A stretch of DNA of 64,000 nucleotides. Origin: Candidatus Woesearchaeota archaeon (lineage in GTDB: Archaea; Nanobdellota; Nanobdellia; Woesearchaeales; JAZDKJ01). The translations under genes were made by a program, and so were the position numbers. Positions 55,725 to 63,972 of the stretch are shown piece by piece. The first letter of the stretch is position 1. Every line of letters starts with the position of its first letter. The stretch spans positions 352,001 to 416,000 of the forward strand of contig JAZDKJ010000006.1 in the NCBI GenBank assembly GCA_043803105.1, given 5' to 3'. Below the pieces are notes generated by a model. It was not told the origin of the DNA and ran no database searches. It saw only the letters and a list, made by a program, of their open reading frames with translations.

Positions 55725-56252
55725 CTAAGGTATTCTTCTCAATTGCCTGACAAGGTAATTTTGCGAGTCATCAGGCAGCTTATGTCTTGCCTCTTCCTGC
55801 ACAATTGGCTTTGCCTCTTCTTTTTTGGCGAACGGATTCTCTGCCAAGGGCTTGAGGATAAGTTCTACAGTTGACATTTCCTCTTCGCTTAGCTGTTTCG
55901 TCTTCCACTCAAGGTTAAGGCCGTCGTTCTCCATCCTTGGTATTATCTGGATCGTGAAATGTGCGTACATTTGTCCAGCAGCAACTCCATTGTTGACAAG
56001 GATATTTGTGCCGTGCATGCCCAGGCTTTCGAACACTGAGGTTGATATCTTGTTTGCCATAACAAAGAGTTTTTCGAGCTCGTCGTCCGGCACCTGTTCG
56101 AGTATTGTATAATGCTTTTTCGGGAAGAGAAGTACCTGGCCTGGAGTGCTCGGTTTGTCATGGAGCACCGCCTTCATCATGTCATCTTCATAGACAGTGA
56201 ATTCTGCCCTGCCCAAGGCAAGGTTGCATATTGTACAATCTTCTTTGTTCAT
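55725..56252 (-). CDS. HIT-family protein, degenerate motif
   Basis: CTIC, PGQVLLFPKKH, GTNILVNNG..AGQ..HFTIQIIPR. Confidence 0.85.
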   Translation of the reverse strand: MNKEDCTICNLALGRAEFTVYEDDMMKAVLHDKPSTPGQVLLFPKKHYTILEQVPDDELEKLFVMANKISTSVFESLGMHGTNILVNNGVAAGQMYAHFTIQIIPRMENDGLNLEWKTKQLSEEEMSTVELILKPLAENPFAKKEEAKPIVQEEARHKLPDDSQNYLVRQLRRIP

Positions 56253-56878
56253 TTGAATAGTCTGCTTATTGAGTCAAGGTCTGTTTGCCCGGCATCTGTT
56301 TTAGCAGGTTTTTCTGCAGGTTTTTTCTCTTCTACATGGCTCGTTTCTCTTTTTGCAGGCAGTTCCTCAGTTACCATATCCTTCACTCCCAAGATTTCAT
56401 AGAGCCGCTTCTTTATCCTTTTCTGCACTTCATGCATGTCGTTTGCAGTCATCTGCTTTGCGGGAAGCTTGAACTCGATTCCATCGTCTGCCATTCTCGG
56501 TATGACATGCATCATGAAGTGCTGCGCCTTCTGGCCTGCCACTAATCCGTTGGCAATAAATACTGTGGTTCCTCCTGCCTTAAGGCCTTTCAAGATTGCG
56601 TTTGACAATCCCTTGGCTACTCTGGAGAGTTTTCCAGTAGTCTTGTCTGGGATCAAGGGCATTATTGCGTAATGCTCGTTTGGTAATAGCAAGATGTGTC
56701 CAGGATTTGCAGGATTGATGTCAAGGACTGCAGTGCAGTCATCGTCTGAGAAAAGCTTTCTTGATTGTACCTTGCTGGAAATTATTTGGCAGAAAATGCA
56801 TTGCTTTTTTTGGAACTCCTTGAGCTCTTCTGGAGACATGTTCTTGATTTTTTCCTCATACTCCTGCTGCGGGTCCAT
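56249..56878 (-). CDS. HIT-family protein, degenerate motif
   Basis: CIFCQI, LDINPANPGHILLLP.EH, NG..AGQ..HFMMHVIPR; start moved to ATG 56878. Confidence 0.85.
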   Translation of the reverse strand: MDPQQEYEEKIKNMSPEELKEFQKKQCIFCQIISSKVQSRKLFSDDDCTAVLDINPANPGHILLLPNEHYAIMPLIPDKTTGKLSRVAKGLSNAILKGLKAGGTTVFIANGLVAGQKAQHFMMHVIPRMADDGIEFKLPAKQMTANDMHEVQKRIKKRLYEILGVKDMVTEELPAKRETSHVEEKKPAEKPAKTDAGQTDLDSISRLFK

Positions 56879-56954
56879 TATTCTTTTGTCTTCCGAAGAA
56901 ACTATAAAAATGTTTCCAGAAAGAATTAAATAGGTGGATTCCGATTTTCGGGTT

Positions 56955-57725
56955 ATGGTTGAAATAAAGCTTGACCTGCGAAAATCGGTTGAAGAGAACG
57001 CTGGGCTACATTTTGAGAAAGCGAAAAAGCTAAAGAAAAAACTTGTTGGTGCAAAGGCAACAGTTGAGCGCGTCAGAAAAGAGCTTGATAGGTTTGAGAA
57101 AAAGGAGCTGGCTGCTGTTGAGCTGCCTAAGGTCGACAGGAGAAAACAATGGTTCGAAAAGTTCCGCTGGTTCTTGAGTTCAGAGGGTTTTCTTGTGGTT
57201 GGCGGCCGCGACGCAACTACCAACGAAATAATAATCAAGAAGCACACGGAGCCTGAAGACCTTGTTTTTCATACTGACATGTCAGGCTCTCCTTTTTTCG
57301 TTGTTAAGGCTGATGGAAAACAACCTGGTGTCCAGACCTTAAGGGAGGCTGCAGACGCCACTTTTTCTTTTAGTCGCAGCTCAAAGACAGGTATGACCAC
57401 TTCTCCTGTTTTTTACGTTACGCCTGCTCAGGTCTCAAGGACTCCTAATCCTGGTGAGTCATTGCCTAAAGGCGCTTTCATCATTCGTGGCAAGACCAAT
57501 TACATAGAAAACAAGTTTAATGTTGCTGTCGGTATCTATAAGGGAGCTGTTATGGCTGGCCCGCTTGAAGCAGTGCAGAAGCATTGCGAAAAATATCTCC
57601 AATTGATTCCTGGGGAAAAAAAGCCTTCTGACATTGCAAAGATGGTTAGGAAGCTTATTGGTGGAGAGCTTGATGAGATAATTAGGGCTCTCCCCAGTGG
57701 CAACTGTGACCTGAAGAAACCTTAA
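56955..57725 (+). CDS. Short NFACT/Rqc2-like protein (coiled coil + NFACT-R)
   Basis: LDLRKSVEENA..FEKAKK, WFEKFRWF.SS.G.LVVGGRDA..NE, GE.LPKGAF.IRG. Confidence 0.85.
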   Translation: MVEIKLDLRKSVEENAGLHFEKAKKLKKKLVGAKATVERVRKELDRFEKKELAAVELPKVDRRKQWFEKFRWFLSSEGFLVVGGRDATTNEIIIKKHTEPEDLVFHTDMSGSPFFVVKADGKQPGVQTLREAADATFSFSRSSKTGMTTSPVFYVTPAQVSRTPNPGESLPKGAFIIRGKTNYIENKFNVAVGIYKGAVMAGPLEAVQKHCEKYLQLIPGEKKPSDIAKMVRKLIGGELDEIIRALPSGNCDLKKP

Positions 57726-58427: not shown

Positions 58428-59732
58428 ATGAAAGTCCTTATTGTAGGTTCAGGAGGTCGGGAGCATGCTCTGGCCTGGAAAATAGCCAAAAGTCCGCTGG
58501 TTTCTAAGGTATATTGTGCTCCAGGTAATGACGGAATTTTGCAGACGCCAAAGGCAGATTGTTTCTCAGAAATCAAGGCAACAGATATTGAAGGCCTTGT
58601 TTCCCTGGCGAAAAAGAAAGGTGTTGATTTCACTCTTTTTGGTCCTGAAGATTCTTTGGTCAACGGCGCCTATGACAGGTTCAGGAAAGAAGGCCGTCTT
58701 GCTTTAGGCCCTGATAGCTGGGGAGCTGATATTGAAGGCAGCAAAGCCTGGACAAAGGACTTGATGCAAAACTATGGTATACCTACTGCCTTTGGCCAGT
58801 CAACCTCAAGGATTTCACAAGCTAAGGATATTGCCAAGGAATTTGTGCAGCATTATGGTGGTGTAGTTGTCAAGGCAGATGGGCCTTGTGGCGGAAAGGG
58901 AGTTTTTGTATGCAGAACCTTGCTTGAAGCCATTTTAGCCATAGACCGGATTATGGTCAAGCGAGTCTTTGGCCCTGCTGGAAAGCGAGTTGTCTTGGAA
59001 GAACTGCTTGTTGGCGAGGAAGCATCATTCATGGCATTGGTAAACAGCGTCGAAGATTATATCTTGCCTTTTGCTTCATCGCAAGACCATAAGAGGCGTG
59101 ATGATGGAGATAAAGGCCCAATGACCGGCGGCATGGGTGCTTATTCGCCTGCGCCTGTAGTAACACCTGTAATTCATAAAATGATAATGAAAGACACCTT
59201 GTACCAGACTATGCGCGCTATGGCTCAGGAAGGCAGGCCTTATGTTGGGGTCATGTATGCTGGCCTAATGATAGTTAAAGGAAAACCAAAGGTGCTGGAA
59301 TTCAACTGCCGCTTCGGAGACCCAGAGATCCAGCCAATACTAATGAGGATGAAACCTGACATTATGCCTTTGCTCATTGGCTGTGCAGAAGGCAACCTCA
59401 GAAAACAGACGGTTGAATGGTACGACGACGCTGCGGTCTGCGTAGTTATGGCCTCAAAAGGTTATCCTGAATCAGAGCAATTGAGAGGCCAGCAGATTCA
59501 CGGCCTTGAGGATGTTACACACATGGAAAATGTCTATGCCTTCCATGCAGGCACTGCTTACAAGAATGGTGTTTGGACTAATAAGGGTGGCCGTGTCTTA
59601 GGTGTAACTGGCAGAGCGCCCACCATAAAGGAGGCACAAGACCTTGCCTATGAAGCAGCCAAAATGATTACATTCAATGGTGCTCATTATCGCACTGACA
59701 TAGGCAATAAAGCAATCCAGAAAACAGTCTAG
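58428..59732 (+). CDS. purD: Phosphoribosylamine-glycine ligase
   Basis: MKVLIVGSGGREHALAW, QDHKR..DGD.GP.TGGMGAYSP, EFNCRFGDPE. Confidence 0.97.
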   Translation: MKVLIVGSGGREHALAWKIAKSPLVSKVYCAPGNDGILQTPKADCFSEIKATDIEGLVSLAKKKGVDFTLFGPEDSLVNGAYDRFRKEGRLALGPDSWGADIEGSKAWTKDLMQNYGIPTAFGQSTSRISQAKDIAKEFVQHYGGVVVKADGPCGGKGVFVCRTLLEAILAIDRIMVKRVFGPAGKRVVLEELLVGEEASFMALVNSVEDYILPFASSQDHKRRDDGDKGPMTGGMGAYSPAPVVTPVIHKMIMKDTLYQTMRAMAQEGRPYVGVMYAGLMIVKGKPKVLEFNCRFGDPEIQPILMRMKPDIMPLLIGCAEGNLRKQTVEWYDDAAVCVVMASKGYPESEQLRGQQIHGLEDVTHMENVYAFHAGTAYKNGVWTNKGGRVLGVTGRAPTIKEAQDLAYEAAKMITFNGAHYRTDIGNKAIQKTV

Positions 59733-59771: not shown

Positions 59772-60725
59772 GTGTCTGATAAACTGTTGCTGATTGGTAT
59801 GGGTTCGCCTAGTGATTTGAAGCATTTTGAAAAGCCTTATGCAAGCCTTGACGGCACCATCCCGGAATATCTCTTAAAAAAGGGTGTGAGACTATATTTG
59901 AGCCCTGGCACAGGAAAGCCTCTTGTTACCTCAATACATCGCACCACTGATACAGCAATGAAATTTGCAGATTCTCTTGATAGCTTGGTTGCTATAGAAG
60001 GAAGAAATGACAGGTTTGTTGCCTTATTGTTTGGCGGGCTTGCTTTTCATCTTGGTGGGGCTTTTGCTGGAAAGAATCCTGCAATACCGACGATTGTAGC
60101 TGCGATGGATGAGCATGCCTTCATGAGCGCCTATGCTATGCCTAAAGGAACTCCGGTTGGATTGGTTGGAGTCAACCAGCTTGACAAGGCTGTGATGATG
60201 GCAACTAAGATTCTTGACTATAACGATTCTAACCGAGCATGGATCATACACCATCATTTCACCAATCCTCCATCGACTGATAGGGAGCATCTCGTAAAGT
60301 CTTCATATGATGCTGCCACTCAGCTTCTGCAAAAGTGCAATGTTTTGTCTTGGGCAGTTGAATTTATTTTTGTCGCGCAGAAGAAATATAAAGGTGTTTC
60401 ATTAAGCCTGCCAGCGCTGCCACAAACCGCAATAGAAATGGACAAGAGGTTAATTTTGGGTTCTGTTTCGTTTGTCAATCCTGCTGCGTTAAGTCCTTGC
60501 ACCACAGGTCAGTATCAGACCCTCATGGATGTTGCTGGTCAGCTCAAGAACTCTTTGCTGGTCCATGACCCTTACAACGCAGCCCTTTTTACAATCCAGG
60601 TTATCGCAAACAAGTATCCAGACTTACGTCTTGGGCTTGACAGGATAAAGGAAGAATCGAGGCTGCCGACTGCGAAGGGTGGGTATTCTCAGTTTTTGCC
60701 AATAAAAAAGGATGATTTCAAGTGA
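59772..60725 (+). CDS. purE: PurE-like AIR carboxylase/N5-CAIR mutase with duplicated degenerate domain
   Basis: MGSPSDL, SIHRT, GLAFHLGG, MPKGTPV; second half ends NAALFTIQVIA..YPDL. Confidence 0.72.
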   Translation: MSDKLLLIGMGSPSDLKHFEKPYASLDGTIPEYLLKKGVRLYLSPGTGKPLVTSIHRTTDTAMKFADSLDSLVAIEGRNDRFVALLFGGLAFHLGGAFAGKNPAIPTIVAAMDEHAFMSAYAMPKGTPVGLVGVNQLDKAVMMATKILDYNDSNRAWIIHHHFTNPPSTDREHLVKSSYDAATQLLQKCNVLSWAVEFIFVAQKKYKGVSLSLPALPQTAIEMDKRLILGSVSFVNPAALSPCTTGQYQTLMDVAGQLKNSLLVHDPYNAALFTIQVIANKYPDLRLGLDRIKEESRLPTAKGGYSQFLPIKKDDFK

Positions 60726-60736
60726 GGTGAAATAAC

Positions 60737-62017
60737 GTGGGCAGTACAAAAGATTTGGTTACTACAGGAAAGCTTGGTGAGCAATGGTATGCGCCTCCAA
60801 CCGCTGTCAAGTTTGGTTATGGACCAATGCAGGTAAAAGGAACCTTCTCTGTGGCAGACTTAAAGAAGCTTATTCCTGAGTCTATCATAAAAAACAAGGC
60901 AGAAGCCCTTGCCATGCAGCAGGCAGCATTTGCAGAGTATCTGCAATATAATCACCCTGAGATCCCAAATTCCTATTATGGTATATTGGACAAAGATTTC
61001 AAACGTACTGACGTTCAGCACTTGTTGTCTAAGGGAGAAACATCGAGCATCGTAGTCATGAAGCTTGCCCACACGCCAGATAGCTTTTGCGAAGGTAACC
61101 TTGATAAATATCGGGCTGCCCTGCAATCAGGAGAATTACAGTGCGGCGTTGCAGACGTGGAGTCAATCTTCAGGCTGGGCTTTCCGCTCGGCAGCTCGAC
61201 TTTCGAGGATATTTTCAAGGCTGTCAGGTTAGGAGAAAAGTACGAGCATTTAGCCACTTACAATGAGACTGCGGCCGAACTCGACAAAATCAGGGCTATG
61301 GTTTCCGAGCAAGGTCTTGACATCTTCGAAGGTTTGGAGGAATTGCTTCAAAAAAAAGGCCTGGGCACCACTATTCCGAATCCAGGATTTGTCCTCAAGC
61401 ATTTTGTTTATGATACAACCACAAAATTCGTGAGTTACGGCGACCTTAAGATATCTGAGGAAGATGCTGAGAAACTTAGCGGCCTAAGCCATGAGAGTTA
61501 TCAGCTCTGGAAGAATGACATGTTCCCGAAGATTGCTGCTGCGCAGATAAAATTTTGCATGGAAAGGAACATATTCAATATTGATGGCAAGAGTGAAATC
61601 GTGGCATACCATCGCATGCCAGTTGTTGCCGACTTCCAATGCACTGTTGACGAAAACAGGGAAATGATAGTTGTGGCGGTTGACGGGGTTGAATGGCTGA
61701 TTCCCAGCAATAAGGAAATACAGCGGGCGATTTTCAGAAAAGAGGGAGTTTATGCAGCAAAGGCTGAGGCTTTAAGGCGGTCAGTAAAAGACAAAGGAGT
61801 CTTTGACCATTGGAAGGAGTATTTTCCGGCTGTCATCAAGGAGCGAAAGATTGATTTGGTGGGTGTTACAGAATTCTCGTGTGATTTGATGGCAAATGCA
61901 ATCATGGAAGTTGCCAACCGGACTCTCGGCCATAGGGTGTTTGATGCAAAGCCGCTTGACTCGTGGGTTAGAGACTTTGTTCCTTATGCTAGTAAGTTAC
62001 AAAGGCAAGGTGATTAA
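60737..62017 (+). CDS. purC: SAICAR synthetase, long divergent form
   Basis: GSTKDL, ESIFR...GSS, TTKF, DGKSE, AD..TVDENR, NKEIQR; operon context. Confidence 0.78.
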   Translation: MGSTKDLVTTGKLGEQWYAPPTAVKFGYGPMQVKGTFSVADLKKLIPESIIKNKAEALAMQQAAFAEYLQYNHPEIPNSYYGILDKDFKRTDVQHLLSKGETSSIVVMKLAHTPDSFCEGNLDKYRAALQSGELQCGVADVESIFRLGFPLGSSTFEDIFKAVRLGEKYEHLATYNETAAELDKIRAMVSEQGLDIFEGLEELLQKKGLGTTIPNPGFVLKHFVYDTTTKFVSYGDLKISEEDAEKLSGLSHESYQLWKNDMFPKIAAAQIKFCMERNIFNIDGKSEIVAYHRMPVVADFQCTVDENREMIVVAVDGVEWLIPSNKEIQRAIFRKEGVYAAKAEALRRSVKDKGVFDHWKEYFPAVIKERKIDLVGVTEFSCDLMANAIMEVANRTLGHRVFDAKPLDSWVRDFVPYASKLQRQGD

Positions 62018-62019
62018 GA

Positions 62020-63972
62020 ATGGGGCATGTTTTGTTCGGTCGTTATCCAAGCAAGGAGATGAAGGAAATCATCGGTCCTCAACCCAAGGATTACAGGACG
62101 CTTTGCTCTCCTGATATGGAAAATATTTTCTCCAAGGAGTCAAAACATAATGGTTGGGATGACGTTTGGTATGCCCATATGAAAGCACAAAAAGAAACAG
62201 GCCTGCCAATACCGCAGGAGCATTTGGATGCCTTCCAAGTTATTCTACACAAGATTAATTATCAACGCATGGATGAGATTGAACGAATCCTGAAGCATGA
62301 TGTTGATTCTGGCAGGAAGCATCGTGCTGAAGAATTGGAGAAGGTGTTGGAAGGCTCTTCCGCATGGCTGCATGCTGGTGCAACTAGCTGCACGGTCACA
62401 GATAATCAGGAGCTTACTGCAATGTATAACGGCTTGCAGCTCTTGGCAGACAAAGGATACAATCTCCTTAACAAGCTTGAGCGTTTTGATTCTGGTCTGA
62501 TTGTTAACCAGCACAAGTCAGATCTAGAATATGCCTTGAATATATTAGACAGCAGGATCAACAACTTCAAGATAAGAGGTGCAAAAGGCACCACAGGCAC
62601 CCAGGCAAGCTATCTCGAGCTGTTTGATGGCAATGCAGAAAAGGTCAGCGCTTTCGAACAAGCCTTCATCCAAAGACTTGGGTTTGGTAGGGCATTCACG
62701 ATAACCGGTCAGACCTATCCACGGATTGCGGATTACCAGCTCGTATCAACCTTGGGCGTGCTTGCGACTGCGCTTTCAAACATTGCAGAGTACTCAGTCA
62801 GCTTTTCCGAAGAATTAGCTCATCCTTTGTCTGATGTGAAGAGCTTTGCAAAAAGCGCTGCGCACATGGCATCCAAGCAGTGGTTGGAGCGAACACTAGA
62901 TGACTCTGCCCAGAGACGGATTATCATCGAAGATTCCTTCAAGGCAGTTGAGTATGTTCTGGATAGGCTGAACTCTGCAGAAATTAACCCGATAGAGATA
63001 AGGGACCCTGACTTTCAGCTAAGCCAGCCATTGTCAGAAACGCTTGAAGGCACTACAGGCAAGGCTCTTGAGCTGTTGCGTGACAAGACTGTGAATACAA
63101 TTTTCAGAATTCACACATTTGCAGAGAAGTTCAAGGACCAGCCTTGCATGGCATACACTCATTATCAGGTTGCCCAGCCTACAACTGTAGGCAAGCGGCT
63201 TGACCTTTGGGCCTATAATTATGTTTTGGCACTTCAGGACATTGAAGACTTTTTGGAGTCTGACAAGAACCTTGAAGTAAGCCAGAATATTGTTGAATAT
63301 CGCATCGCCACACTGTTAACACAGATTGCGGTTGCTGCCCATAAGCAAGCCGCAGATGTCAGGTTGTGCCAGCATGACGGGATAATGACTGAGCCTTTTG
63401 CAATTGGCCAAAAAGGTTCAAGTGCTATGCCTCATAAGCGCAATCCTATGAAGAATGAGCGCATCTGTTCTCTATCTACAGAGTTGATTCAGTATGCTGA
63501 TTCCAATAATGCCAACCCTTATAGCTTTTTGCTAGCTGACTCAGTCTTGAATCTTGCAATGGCTGTTTTTGTTGAGGATACTCCTAAACAAAAGGGCTTT
63601 ACTGTTAACCCAGAGGTTATTGCAAAGAATTTCAGGGAATTTCTGCCATATATCTGCCTAGAGCAACTGGTTAACAAAGTGCTCAAGACAGGAAAATACA
63701 AGCGCGAGGAGCTGTATGACATCGCTTACAATTGCTCAATACAGGCCCGAACCAATGTCGAGGTACACGGCAAGGCAAACAACACGCTTGAATTAGTGTG
63801 CGAATACCCTCAATTTGGGCTCACTCCAGAAATGATTCCTGCGATGCTTGATCCTATGCTCTATATCGGTCTAGCGTCAAAACAGGTAGAATTGTTTGGA
63901 AGGGTGCATGTGGACCCCTTGAAAGAGAAGTACAAATCTGTTCAGGCGTTAGAGTCTGACGTGAAAGTTTAA
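62020..63972 (+). CDS. purB: Adenylosuccinate lyase, internally duplicated form
   Basis: HDV, HAGATS, KGTTGTQAS, GQTYPR, QWLERTLDDSA, THYQVAQPTTVGKR, SSAMPHKRNP. Confidence 0.9.
   Translation: MGHVLFGRYPSKEMKEIIGPQPKDYRTLCSPDMENIFSKESKHNGWDDVWYAHMKAQKETGLPIPQEHLDAFQVILHKINYQRMDEIERILKHDVDSGRKHRAEELEKVLEGSSAWLHAGATSCTVTDNQELTAMYNGLQLLADKGYNLLNKLERFDSGLIVNQHKSDLEYALNILDSRINNFKIRGAKGTTGTQASYLELFDGNAEKVSAFEQAFIQRLGFGRAFTITGQTYPRIADYQLVSTLGVLATALSNIAEYSVSFSEELAHPLSDVKSFAKSAAHMASKQWLERTLDDSAQRRIIIEDSFKAVEYVLDRLNSAEINPIEIRDPDFQLSQPLSETLEGTTGKALELLRDKTVNTIFRIHTFAEKFKDQPCMAYTHYQVAQPTTVGKRLDLWAYNYVLALQDIEDFLESDKNLEVSQNIVEYRIATLLTQIAVAAHKQAADVRLCQHDGIMTEPFAIGQKGSSAMPHKRNPMKNERICSLSTELIQYADSNNANPYSFLLADSVLNLAMAVFVEDTPKQKGFTVNPEVIAKNFREFLPYICLEQLVNKVLKTGKYKREELYDIAYNCSIQARTNVEVHGKANNTLELVCEYPQFGLTPEMIPAMLDPMLYIGLASKQVELFGRVHVDPLKEKYKSVQALESDVKV

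Follow-up and report, generated by a model that had tools for sequence, protein, structure and literature searches.

In the aspartase/fumarase superfamily, three subunits contribute to every active site, and for this reason its enzymes are obligate homotetramers. Canonical adenylosuccinate lyase (PurB) is a tetramer of D2 symmetry with four active sites, in which the subunits pack antiparallel with domains 1 and 3 (D1 and D3) at opposite ends; to our knowledge, all known adenylosuccinate lyases use four chains. How could an active site of this kind be assembled from a chain that carries the helical domain twice, with the catalytic motifs divided between the two copies? The question is raised by one gene in a 64,000-nucleotide stretch of DNA from a Candidatus Woesearchaeota archaeon (termed here the window), for which the initial annotation had proposed a tandem duplication of the PurB helical domain followed by reciprocal motif loss, and a dimer of pseudo-dimers with two active sites. 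The gene, its parts and its upstream neighbors are listed in Table 1.

Table 1. Positions in the window of the duplicated-domain purB gene, the parts of its product and the purine genes upstream.
Feature	Position	Strand	Basis or remark
purD, first gene of the same-strand purine cluster	58428..59732	+	GARS_N, GARS_A and GARS_C domains
purE-like gene, 317 aa	59772..60725	+	AIRC domain on aa 8-154 only
purC-like gene, 426 aa	60737..62017	+	weak NCBIfam PurC matches (E 3e-7 and 6.9e-7)
Whole ORF, duplicated-domain adenylosuccinate lyase (PurB)	62020..63972	+	650 aa plus stop
Domain 1 (aa 1-112), with R8-Y9 and H93-D94	62020..62355	+	AlphaFold2 helices; VIA superposition
Helical domain copy a (aa 113-319)	62356..62976	+	hhalign, AlphaFold2, VIA, MAFFT
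Linker joining both helical domains (aa 320-344)	62977..63051	+	family alignment; low pLDDT
Helical domain copy b (aa 345-516)	63052..63567	+	hhalign, AlphaFold2, VIA, MAFFT
Domain 3 (aa 517-650), ADSL C-terminal domain	63568..63969	+	PF10397 ADSL_C, aa 560-624; VIA

All motifs occur exactly once, in the parts to which they had been assigned: the first part (motif span nt 62038-62907) has GRYPS (residues 7-11), KHDV (92-95), GATS (120-123), KGTTGT (189-194), GQTYPR (230-235) and ERTLDDS (290-296), and the second (nt 63157-63447) has THYQ (380-383) and SSAMPHKRNP (467-476), such that the order along the chain is A-C-E and then B-D-F, over two helical domains. The first part is without THxQ and the SS loop at their usual places (hhalign against 24 canonical PurBs; MAFFT), and the second is without KGxxGT, GQTY and ERTLDDS (hhalign against 24 canonical PurBs; MAFFT occupancy map). 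In the AlphaFold2 model, copy a is made up of helices at residues 123-154, 160-181, 236-256, 264-285 and 295-319, with turns at 155-159 and 257-263 standing in for the THxQ hairpin and the SS loop. Copy b, with helices at 345-370, 390-412, 422-452, 477-494 and 500-516, keeps the THYQ hairpin and the stretch from SSAMPHKRNP to E480 (467-480), and has turns at 413-421 and 495-499 in place of the KGTTGT..GQTY region and ERTLDDS. The linker between the copies varies in length and sequence across the family alignment.

Both halves align to the helical domain of PurB (hhalign, probability 100 % for each), residues 1-330 being collinear with canonical positions 1-349 (E 1.4e-94) and residues 331-650 corresponding to positions 111-480 (E 2e-101), and the deletions in the two halves are complementary: in the MAFFT map, half a occupies canonical positions 1-130, 167-254 and 295-349, and half b occupies positions 108-184, 232-298, 306-317 and 334-480. 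The best sequence match among PDB chains (phmmer, E 7.7e-61) is human ADSL, which is matched in six interleaved stretches, covering in order its chain residues 24-146, 195-262 and 323-359, and then 130-190, 252-315 and 363-483. Because collinearity is broken in this way, the NCBIfam purB model (TIGR00928) reaches 217 bits in 5 stretches, below its equivalog curated cut-off of 326.2 bits; Pfam Lyase_1 (PF00206, the aspartase/fumarase superfamily) is matched in 2 stretches at 57.3 bits, against a gathering cut-off of 27. Direct comparison of one half with the other is not significant (hhalign, probability 0.8 %, E 0.066), with 18 % identity over 102 shared columns, and a tree on those columns, in which the halves do not group together, is as uninformative as the direct hhalign comparison.

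The predicted monomer (AlphaFold2; pLDDT 89.4, pTM 0.92) consists of two five-helix bundles, with ten long helices and turns of 5-9 residues at the four deletion points; pLDDT is about 62 at linker residues 321-330. Two rigid bodies were resolved by VIA-align and not by Foldseek: residues 16-331 of the model superpose on D1+D2 of ADSL (Z 26.7, rmsd 2.9 Å over 312 residues), and residues 332-639 superpose on D2+D3 of delta-crystallin (Z 17.6, rmsd 3.2 Å over 287 residues). The three-domain fold D1-D2-D3 with its five-helix D2 is present, and D2 occurs twice. Foldseek against the PDB returned forced sequential alignments only (TM 0.31, rmsd about 30 Å), and alignments forced over both halves have an rmsd of about 30-32 Å; the cross-half value of about 32 Å indicates that D1 and D3 are not placed as in the canonical monomer. 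Judging from the pTM, the rmsd of 30-32 Å and the inter-chain contacts described below, copy a would pack against copy b within one chain. End-to-end stacking, with the two parts forming the lower and the upper half of a single bundle, was rejected because each half contains the full set of five helices, 17-32 residues in length, and matches an entire D2 in superposition.

The duplicated architecture is not a chance arrangement but a rare conserved family. BLASTP recovered 19 further proteins of 603-698 aa that align with the query over 96 % or more of its length and are 33-48 % identical to it, and 12 one-stretch representatives of the architecture were present among 11,369 matches; the names of the relatives at their source are 'lyase family protein' or 'hypothetical protein'. 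When motif patterns were counted in 23 members, the motifs were found in their own half in 23 of 23 and in the other half in 0 of 23, with the SS-loop pattern (regular expression) in 22 of the 23 second halves (the exception, P0010, has GSA for GSS). In an alignment of 20 members, every catalytic or ligand-binding residue occurs once and is either invariant or conserved in at least 90 % of them, and the catalytic ones do not vary in any of the 20; the residues scored were R-Y, H-D, the T/S of GATS, the KGxxGT loop, the Q of GQTY, the His of THxQ, the SS-loop Ser, K-x-N, Glu, and the S and R of ERTLDDS..RR, whose correspondence to S. aureus PurB residues was drawn by motif from the portion of PMC2917274 consulted; R8 and Y9 are at least 90 % conserved, and H93 is invariant. 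The duplication of the helical domain, the division of the motifs and the reciprocal nature of their loss, all proposed from the one sequence, are borne out by these alignments, superpositions and counts, and homologues with the same motif order, which the initial annotation had suggested seeking, exist.

The long form was not found in the other genomes sampled: 0 of 400 other genomes of the phylum contained a match at E <= 1e-50, and among 40 relatives of the same order, three contain a PurB match, the open frames being 479-487 aa long, and the remaining 37 have no match to this query. A profile scan of genome contigs with two peptide patterns common to canonical PurB returned at least 80 loci with matches of about 1.1-1.5 kb, which is the length of the canonical gene, and nothing on the long form. 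A literature search, judged partly from titles and listings, found no published description of a duplicated PurB architecture.

Both halves derive from one canonical lineage. In separate trees, the a halves are monophyletic (support 0.96), as are the b halves (1.0), and the sister of both is the same clade of 7 canonical PurBs (P0021-P0026 and P0124, 463-511 aa; supports of 0.97 for a and 1.0 for b), which is what a duplication internal to the lineage predicts; the next-outer clade in the a-half tree holds same-order relatives and a record named Aenigmatarchaeota. The event was probably one tandem duplication as opposed to the fusion of two paralogues. Fusion of two specialised paralogous genes (for the a-type and b-type subunits of a heterotetramer), with no single tandem duplication, seems to us unlikely: the trees give the common canonical lineage of the halves and not the order of events, and a singleton a-type-like protein of 282 aa (P0242) occurs elsewhere, but the nearest relatives of that protein are planctomycete PurBs at about 50 % identity and not the duplicated family, no stand-alone a-type or b-type relatives of the family were seen, and the short one-stretch matches P0125, P0232 and P0235 resemble fragments of fused members. 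Among the matches listed, the search for shorter homologues yielded only proteins of 28-35 % identity and no stand-alone half of the family. Several shorter homologues are named at their source as partial adenylosuccinate lyase. An altogether different account, in which an assembly error or the spurious joining of two gene fragments created the reading frame as an artefact, is refuted by the homologues and retains next to no probability: reads of one DNA run, in which 0.11 of the sampled words were present, gave a single 256-nt contig (62290-62545) that stops short of the junction, but 22 other full-length proteins from several independent sources (33-48 % identical to the query for the 19 with a listed value) have the same architecture end to end, no stop interrupts the 650 codons, and the predicted fold reaches a pTM of 0.92.

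In S. aureus PurB, according to the consulted portion of PMC2917274, one subunit supplies His68/Asp69, Ser94/Thr95, Gln212, the Gly182-185 loop, Ser306 and Arg310, a second subunit supplies His141, and a third supplies Asn276, with a His-Glu pairing across subunits that is cited there from Toth and Yeates. The assignment of one subunit's residues to the first copy and those of the other two to the second, made in the initial annotation, agrees with this division. In the same portion of PMC2917274, Arg4 and Tyr5 are labelled as belonging to the same third subunit as Asn276, at odds with the attachment of R8-Y9 to domain a in the present protein; this label is hard to square with the geometry of a subunit, which has D1 at one end and the SS loop at the other.

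The sequence permits at most one full motif set per chain. For complex prediction, we used two copies of residues 110-525, leaving out D1 and D3. The two-copy core scored 0.50, 0.39 and 0.45 (median 0.45), compared with 0.00 for the best of 3 controls; in calibration, 20 of 30 proteins with a solved structure as one-chain pairs attained this mark, against 1 of 23 with a single-chain structure, counts that are only rough with a user alignment, and a pass may reflect memory of solved complexes of the family. The three core-dimer runs agree in at least 74 % of contacts, with a partner pLDDT of at least 72. The predicted contacts 381:475', 381:480' and 452:452' place His381 adjacent to Asn475 and Glu480 of the other chain, matching the cross-subunit His-Glu pairing in the portion of PMC2917274 consulted, and the h4a-h4b' contacts in the predicted core dimer are antiparallel (correlation -0.74). 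As to the proposed dimer of pseudo-dimers, the pairing of two cores gains support from this prediction, and we infer the oligomeric state and the number of sites.

Taken with its anatomy, the protein is likely a working adenylosuccinate lyase of the form D1-a-linker-b-D3 that would act as an obligate C2 dimer mimicking the canonical tetramer, with two sites at one pole. The five-helix domain of a canonical archaeal PurB would have been duplicated inside the gene, after which domain a would have retained one subunit's share of the site (R-Y, H-D, GATS, KGTTGT, GQTY and ERTLDDS, together with D1), and domain b the share of two other subunits (the THxQ acid and the SS-loop base with K-x-N..E, together with D3). 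Because canonical subunits are antiparallel and carry D1 at one end and D3 at the other, every lost piece maps to one pole, and the lost pole of the 20-helix core would comprise the top of a, the bottom of b, the D3 of a and the D1 of b. Two chains would join about a twofold axis parallel to the helices, rebuilding the core from a, b, a' and b' and forming two complete active sites at one pole, each composed of domain a of one chain, the THxQ of one b and the SS loop of the second b; short turns and the a-to-b linker would cap the opposite, stripped pole. Since one chain on its own would have only two of the three contributions, the dimer should be obligate. With less assurance, we lean toward regarding this as a natural, hard-wired form of intragenic complementation, in which a D2 tetramer became a polar C2 dimer by duplication and reciprocal segment loss, the deleted pole amounting to two sites, two D1 and two D3 domains. 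That the stripped pole offers a new free surface, which might dock the atypical PurC-like and PurE-like proteins encoded upstream, is pure conjecture. The duplicated form would have 650 residues per active site against roughly 480 in the canonical enzyme, so no obvious economy explains it.

Other arrangements of the same chain can be weighed against the dimer. A monomer might work alone if the THxQ hairpin and the SS loop of its own chain both reached a single site on domain a, which would suit the presence of every catalytic motif exactly once per chain and the compact, confident monomer model (pTM 0.92). We hold this to be improbable: canonical PurB draws the acid from one subunit and the SS-loop side from another (PMC2917274, in the portion consulted), so that an a-b pair of canonical type could provide just one of the two, and the predicted homodimer sets His381 beside Asn475 and Glu480 of the other chain (median score 0.45, compared with 0.00 for the best of 3 controls). 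Nor do we expect that, in place of a closed C2 dimer, the chains build some bigger or open-ended complex, such as a fused-chain tetramer or an array of domain-swapped chains. Tandem pseudo-dimers can swap when their linker is flexible, as the low confidence here (pLDDT about 62 at residues 321-330) would suggest, and the assembly prediction covered two copies of the core only; however, the monomer model packs a against b in one chain (pTM 0.92), the three dimer runs share at least 74 % of their contacts, and a closed 20-helix core uses all four bundles. Farther from the evidence lies the suggestion that the protein is no longer an adenylosuccinate lyase, being either a pseudoenzyme or a lyase with another substrate, which we regard as very unlikely. 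The purB score below the cut-off (217 against 326.2 bits) and the source names of the relatives might be read in its favor, but the low score follows from broken collinearity, the ligand-contacting and catalytic residues given in the consulted portion of PMC2917274 all have counterparts that are invariant or at least 90 % conserved, the gene sits between the purC-like gene and guaB-purA, and the search of the genome turned up no second PurB candidate.

The genomic context is that of purine synthesis. The start codon (ATG) of purB lies 2 nt past the stop of the purC-like gene, and the cluster runs in the order purD, purE-like, purC-like, purB, guaB, purA, purO, AICARFT (purH) and an AIRS-family gene; Pfam found nothing credible on the C-terminal part of the purE-like protein or on either half of the purC-like protein. 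The reading frame is the sole PurB candidate found in this 96 %-complete genome, whose other Lyase_1 gene is argH. The cluster context, with the purC-like gene upstream and purA downstream, and the lack of another PurB candidate support cleavage of both SAICAR and adenylosuccinate as the probable activity of the protein.

In its D1, D2 and D3 folds, catalytic motifs and purine-operon context, the protein resembles canonical PurB/ADSL (PF00206 and PF10397, TIGR00928), but it has two helical domains per chain with partitioned motifs, is 650 rather than about 480 aa long, and is predicted to form a C2 dimer with two sites instead of a D2 tetramer with four. Where known enzymes need four chains, the duplicated form probably manages with two. 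Intragenic complementation reportedly also occurs in hybrid tetramers of inactive B. subtilis ADSL mutants. In human argininosuccinate lyase (ASL), where complementation has been described as 'variant sequestration' in the homotetramer, defects in shared sites are likewise gathered in some sites while others are complete, with two mutant alleles of a normal subunit being mixed in an assembly that is statistical (PMC12818424, in the portion consulted). In the duplicated PurB, unlike ASL, the complementary defects are deletions of whole segments, built permanently into a single natural polypeptide and conserved across its family, and every assembly would therefore have the same two good sites. 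Also within purine synthesis, large PurL, which has a PurM-like duplicated core, is a pseudo-dimer with one degenerate site: there too a homo-oligomeric ancestor became a single-chain pseudo-oligomer in which one site decayed. The PurL fold is different, however, and in the duplicated PurB decay is reciprocal over both copies and would have removed a whole pole of the assembly, because the sites are shared between three domains.

If this account is true, the family represents a different natural solution to building a shared active site, with two complementarily degenerate copies of the core domain per chain, and offers a parallel from nature to the intragenic complementation that has been investigated in deficiency of human ASL and ADSL. 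It would also be a datable case of symmetric homomers becoming asymmetric pseudo-heteromers. Mechanistic studies would gain a simplified scaffold, in which a single type of chain forms two identical sites at one pole. Finally, it would explain why such proteins are automatically annotated as 'lyase family' or 'hypothetical', a gap that bears on whether small DPANN-type genomes are credited with complete purine synthesis.

The open frame at 62020..63972 (+ strand), whose ATG follows the stop codon of the upstream gene by 2 nt, encodes a protein of 650 aa in which each PurB motif named in the initial annotation occurs once, the set being divided between two parts of the chain as described there. 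Matches to family models are fragmented: Lyase_1 (Pfam) is found in 2 stretches (57.3 bits), ADSL_C (Pfam) falls below threshold, and the NCBIfam purB model TIGR00928 matches in 5 stretches with 217 bits, below its cut-off of 326.2. In a phmmer search of PDB chains, 5nx8_A (human ADSL; E 7.7e-61) aligned as six stretches whose order is interleaved.

Features of the 650-aa PurB, and coordinates of other genes discussed
Feature	Location	Details
GRYPS	residues 7-11	first part
KHDV	residues 92-95	first part
GATS	residues 120-123	first part
KGTTGT	residues 189-194	first part
GQTYPR	residues 230-235	first part
ERTLDDS	residues 290-296	first part
THYQ	residues 380-383	second part
SSAMPHKRNP	residues 467-476	second part
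Half 1 (domain a), profile comparison	residues 1-330	canonical 1-349 of 480; probability 100 %, E 1.4e-94; missing: THxQ hairpin plus the adjoining parts of helices 1 (end) and 2 (start), SS loop
Half 2 (domain b), profile comparison	residues 331-650	canonical 111-480; probability 100 %, E 2e-101; missing: KGTTGT..GQTY region, ERTLDDS turn
phmmer stretches, first three	residues 28-154, 182-249, 282-318	5nx8_A 24-146, 195-262, 323-359
phmmer stretches, last three	residues 349-409, 427-490, 525-646	5nx8_A 130-190, 252-315, 363-483
Long helices, first half	residues 123-154, 160-181, 236-256, 264-285, 295-319	AlphaFold2 model
Long helices, second half	residues 345-370, 390-412, 422-452, 477-494, 500-516	AlphaFold2 model
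Predicted dimer interface	residues 275-298, 379-383, 448-452, 473-491	two-copy prediction
HIT-domain genes, adjacent	window 55725-57247 (-)	174 and 331 aa
purE-like gene	window 59772-60725 (+)	317 aa
purC-like gene	window 60737-62017 (+)	426 aa
argH	L003:1261-2436 (G000:C6:219229-220404)	391 aa
AICARFT gene	L100:17-1480 (G000:C6); with the next ORF, about 4-7 kb past window end	487 aa
Second AICARFT-like ORF	L100:1483-2439	318 aa

Profiles of 20 long-form family members were compared with those of 24 canonical PurBs, and an independent MAFFT map agrees with the result: half a covers canonical positions 1-130, 167-254 and 295-349, and half b covers 108-184, 232-298, 306-317 and 334-480, with 102 columns in common. 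Over these shared columns identity between a and b is 18 %, and identity to the nearest canonical clade is 35 % for a and 30 % for b; direct comparison of the two half profiles gave no significant likeness (probability 0.8 %, E 0.066). The proposal that copies of the helical domain had lost motifs reciprocally is borne out by the alignment of both halves to PurB with complementary deletions, and we consider duplication with reciprocal loss very highly probable.

The same arrangement occurs in other genomes. A word-indexed search yielded 19 further proteins of 603-698 aa (at least 96 % query coverage, 33-48 % identity in the BLASTP column), which, where their sources name them, are assigned to Aenigmatarchaeota, Nanoarchaeota or Woesearchaeota and called 'adenylosuccinate lyase', 'lyase family protein' or 'hypothetical protein'; from the canonical-length protein P0021 onward, matches were 463-511 aa long with 39-53 % query coverage. 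Scanning 1.84 billion representatives exhaustively with the profile (E <= 0.001) returned 11,369 matches, and among the best 150 of these listed, 12 proteins of 603-698 aa and four shorter ones aligned as one collinear stretch, the rest being split into between 2 and 7 stretches, usually 6. GATS, KGxxGT, QTxPR and ERxxDDS are each present in all 23 a halves and in none of the 23 b halves; THxQ is confined to b halves (23/23, 0/23 in a), as is the SS-loop pattern (22/23, 0/23 in a), the exception being the homologue P0010, with GSA. The suggested search for homologues of like motif order thus found the same partition in 23 of 23 members, and catalytic residues are invariant throughout the 20-member alignment. 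The 650-aa PurB thus belongs to a genuine but rare family. Among its taxonomic relatives, 400 further genomes sampled from the phylum yielded no long form at E <= 1e-50, and with the 650-aa PurB as query, 37 of 40 same-order genomes gave no match and three gave PurB matches in open frames of 479-487 aa.

An assembly artefact at the junction between the halves is excluded by the long-form homologues. As to how the halves were joined, FastTree trees (LG+gamma, midpoint root) of 23 family members together with 193 proteins of 430-520 aa, all of them retained, recovered the a halves as monophyletic (support 0.96, 279 columns) and likewise the b halves (1.0, 296 columns), the fragment P0125 included. 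Both trees place one set of seven canonical proteins (P0021-P0026 and P0124) as the sister group (0.97 and 1.0), which indicates that both halves descend from one canonical lineage. With four canonical frames added, the next-outer clade of the a-half tree (0.98) included two relatives from the same order plus one record bearing the name Aenigmatarchaeota; the parent lineage was probably archaeal. A tree on the 102 shared columns did not join a and b and was uninformative; the data are compatible with either a single tandem duplication or the fusion of two paralogues. Stand-alone halves of the long-form family were seen neither among the best 150 of the 11,369 profile matches listed nor in a search for shorter homologues.

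A stand-alone, a-type-like PurB half of 282 aa, the singleton P0242, lies on a 35,215-nt contig outside the window. It has D1, GATS, KGxTGT, GQTY and ERTLDDS, lacks THxQ and the SS loop, and, at about 50 % identity, is nearest to canonical Planctomycetaceae PurBs; it might have arisen independently or be a paralogue in decay.

The AlphaFold2 model built on the 20-member alignment (mean pLDDT 89.4, pTM 0.92) places the four deletion points in turns of 5-9 residues each. With VIA-align, residues 16-331 superpose on C. elegans ADSL 2-365 (Z 26.7, rmsd 2.9 A, 312 residues) and residues 332-639 on goose delta-crystallin 112-464 (Z 17.6, rmsd 3.2 A, 287 residues), the rmsd rising to near 32 A once the alignment spans both halves (about 30 A with Foldseek). 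Separate superposition and the large rmsd across both halves imply a chain ordered D1-D2a-linker-D2b-D3, with D1 and D3 placed otherwise than in the canonical monomer; from the model we infer that a packs against b within one chain.

If the helical bundle runs up-down-up-down-up, as we read the architecture of the family, the active-site set of one subunit (A) would lie at the D1 end and the sets of the two others at the D3 end. In the sections on S. aureus PurB used here (PMC2917274), the helical domain is flanked by D1 and D3, one at either end, the dimer is antiparallel, and three subunits contribute to each of four sites: subunit A gives Arg67/Asp69, Ser94/Thr95, Gln212, the Gly182-185 loop, Ser306 and Arg310, subunit B gives His141 and a third subunit Asn276, a His141-Glu275 pairing also being cited. 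By motif correspondence with those sections, domain a retains exactly the subunit-A set and D1, and domain b the His141 set, the SS-loop/Glu set and D3. R8-Y9 lies on D1 of domain a, whereas these sections assign Arg4/Tyr5 to the Asn276 subunit, a label that we could not reconcile with the domain layout stated there. All lost segments would map to one pole (top of a, bottom of b, D3 of a, D1 of b). If, under 222 symmetry, a-type domains took positions A and D and b-type domains B and C, sites A and D would be complete and sites B and C would be without all three contributions, a two-site pattern that the kept and lost motifs appear to fit with no remainder.

When residues 110-525 were predicted as a pair from the family alignment, the runs gave scores of 0.50, 0.39 and 0.45 (median 0.45), and the best of 3 controls stayed at 0.00. 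The tool's verdict, 'supports binding', is in keeping with the dimer of pseudo-dimers initially proposed; by the tool's own warning, such a pass may stem from the predictor's memory where complexes of the family have already been solved. Of 30 proteins whose solved structures are pairs of one chain, 20 attain this mark, as does 1 of 23 whose solved structures are single chains; these counts apply only roughly to a user alignment. Across runs at least 74 % of contacts agreed, with a partner pLDDT of at least 72. The fourth helices of a and b' are packed antiparallel (correlation -0.74, 11 listed pairs), and 452 contacts 452', so that the predicted interface is what the polar-dimer model requires. 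A monomer whose single chain supplied all three contributions is argued against by the predicted contacts of His381 with Asn475 and Glu480 of the other chain. We regard the full polar-dimer mechanism as reasonably likely.

The source genome (1.56 Mb, 13 contigs, 96.5 % complete) has one other Lyase_1-type gene, argH, adjoining argG; its product matches positions 6-388 of the 455-position argH model and appears to be missing much of its C-terminal domain. The PurB frame is fourth in a same-strand cluster, after purD, a purE-like and a purC-like gene, and just past the window end follow guaB, purA, purO, an AICARFT gene, a second AICARFT-like ORF and an AIRS-family gene; with purC-like and purA genes present, the enzymes making both ADSL substrates are encoded beside it. 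The purE-like protein is about twice the usual length, with an AIRC domain at aa 8-154 only and no credible Pfam match for aa 155-317. Pfam gave nothing credible for the purC-like protein, intact or split in two, and NCBIfam PurC models match it only weakly (E 3e-7 and 6.9e-7); it may be a SAICAR synthetase that has diverged strongly or become enlarged. Directly after the AICARFT gene, the second ORF has a weak AICARFT match (E 2.6e-7), and the two may form another duplicated, diverged pair in the operon. Within the window, the longer of the two HIT-domain proteins has its HIT domain at aa 159-251.

The division of motifs first reported is thus confirmed and its interpretation supported. No published description of a duplicated-domain adenylosuccinate lyase was found in the literature covered, which leaves out most subscription journals. 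The 650-aa protein appears to descend from canonical PurB and to work like it, but misses the curated score cut-off and is predicted not to form the tetramer; we would place it among the adenylosuccinate lyases as a new architectural variant. Its closest parallel in concept is the intragenic complementation of human ASL, which works by variant sequestration (PMC12818424), a logic that in the 650-aa PurB would be fixed within one natural chain.
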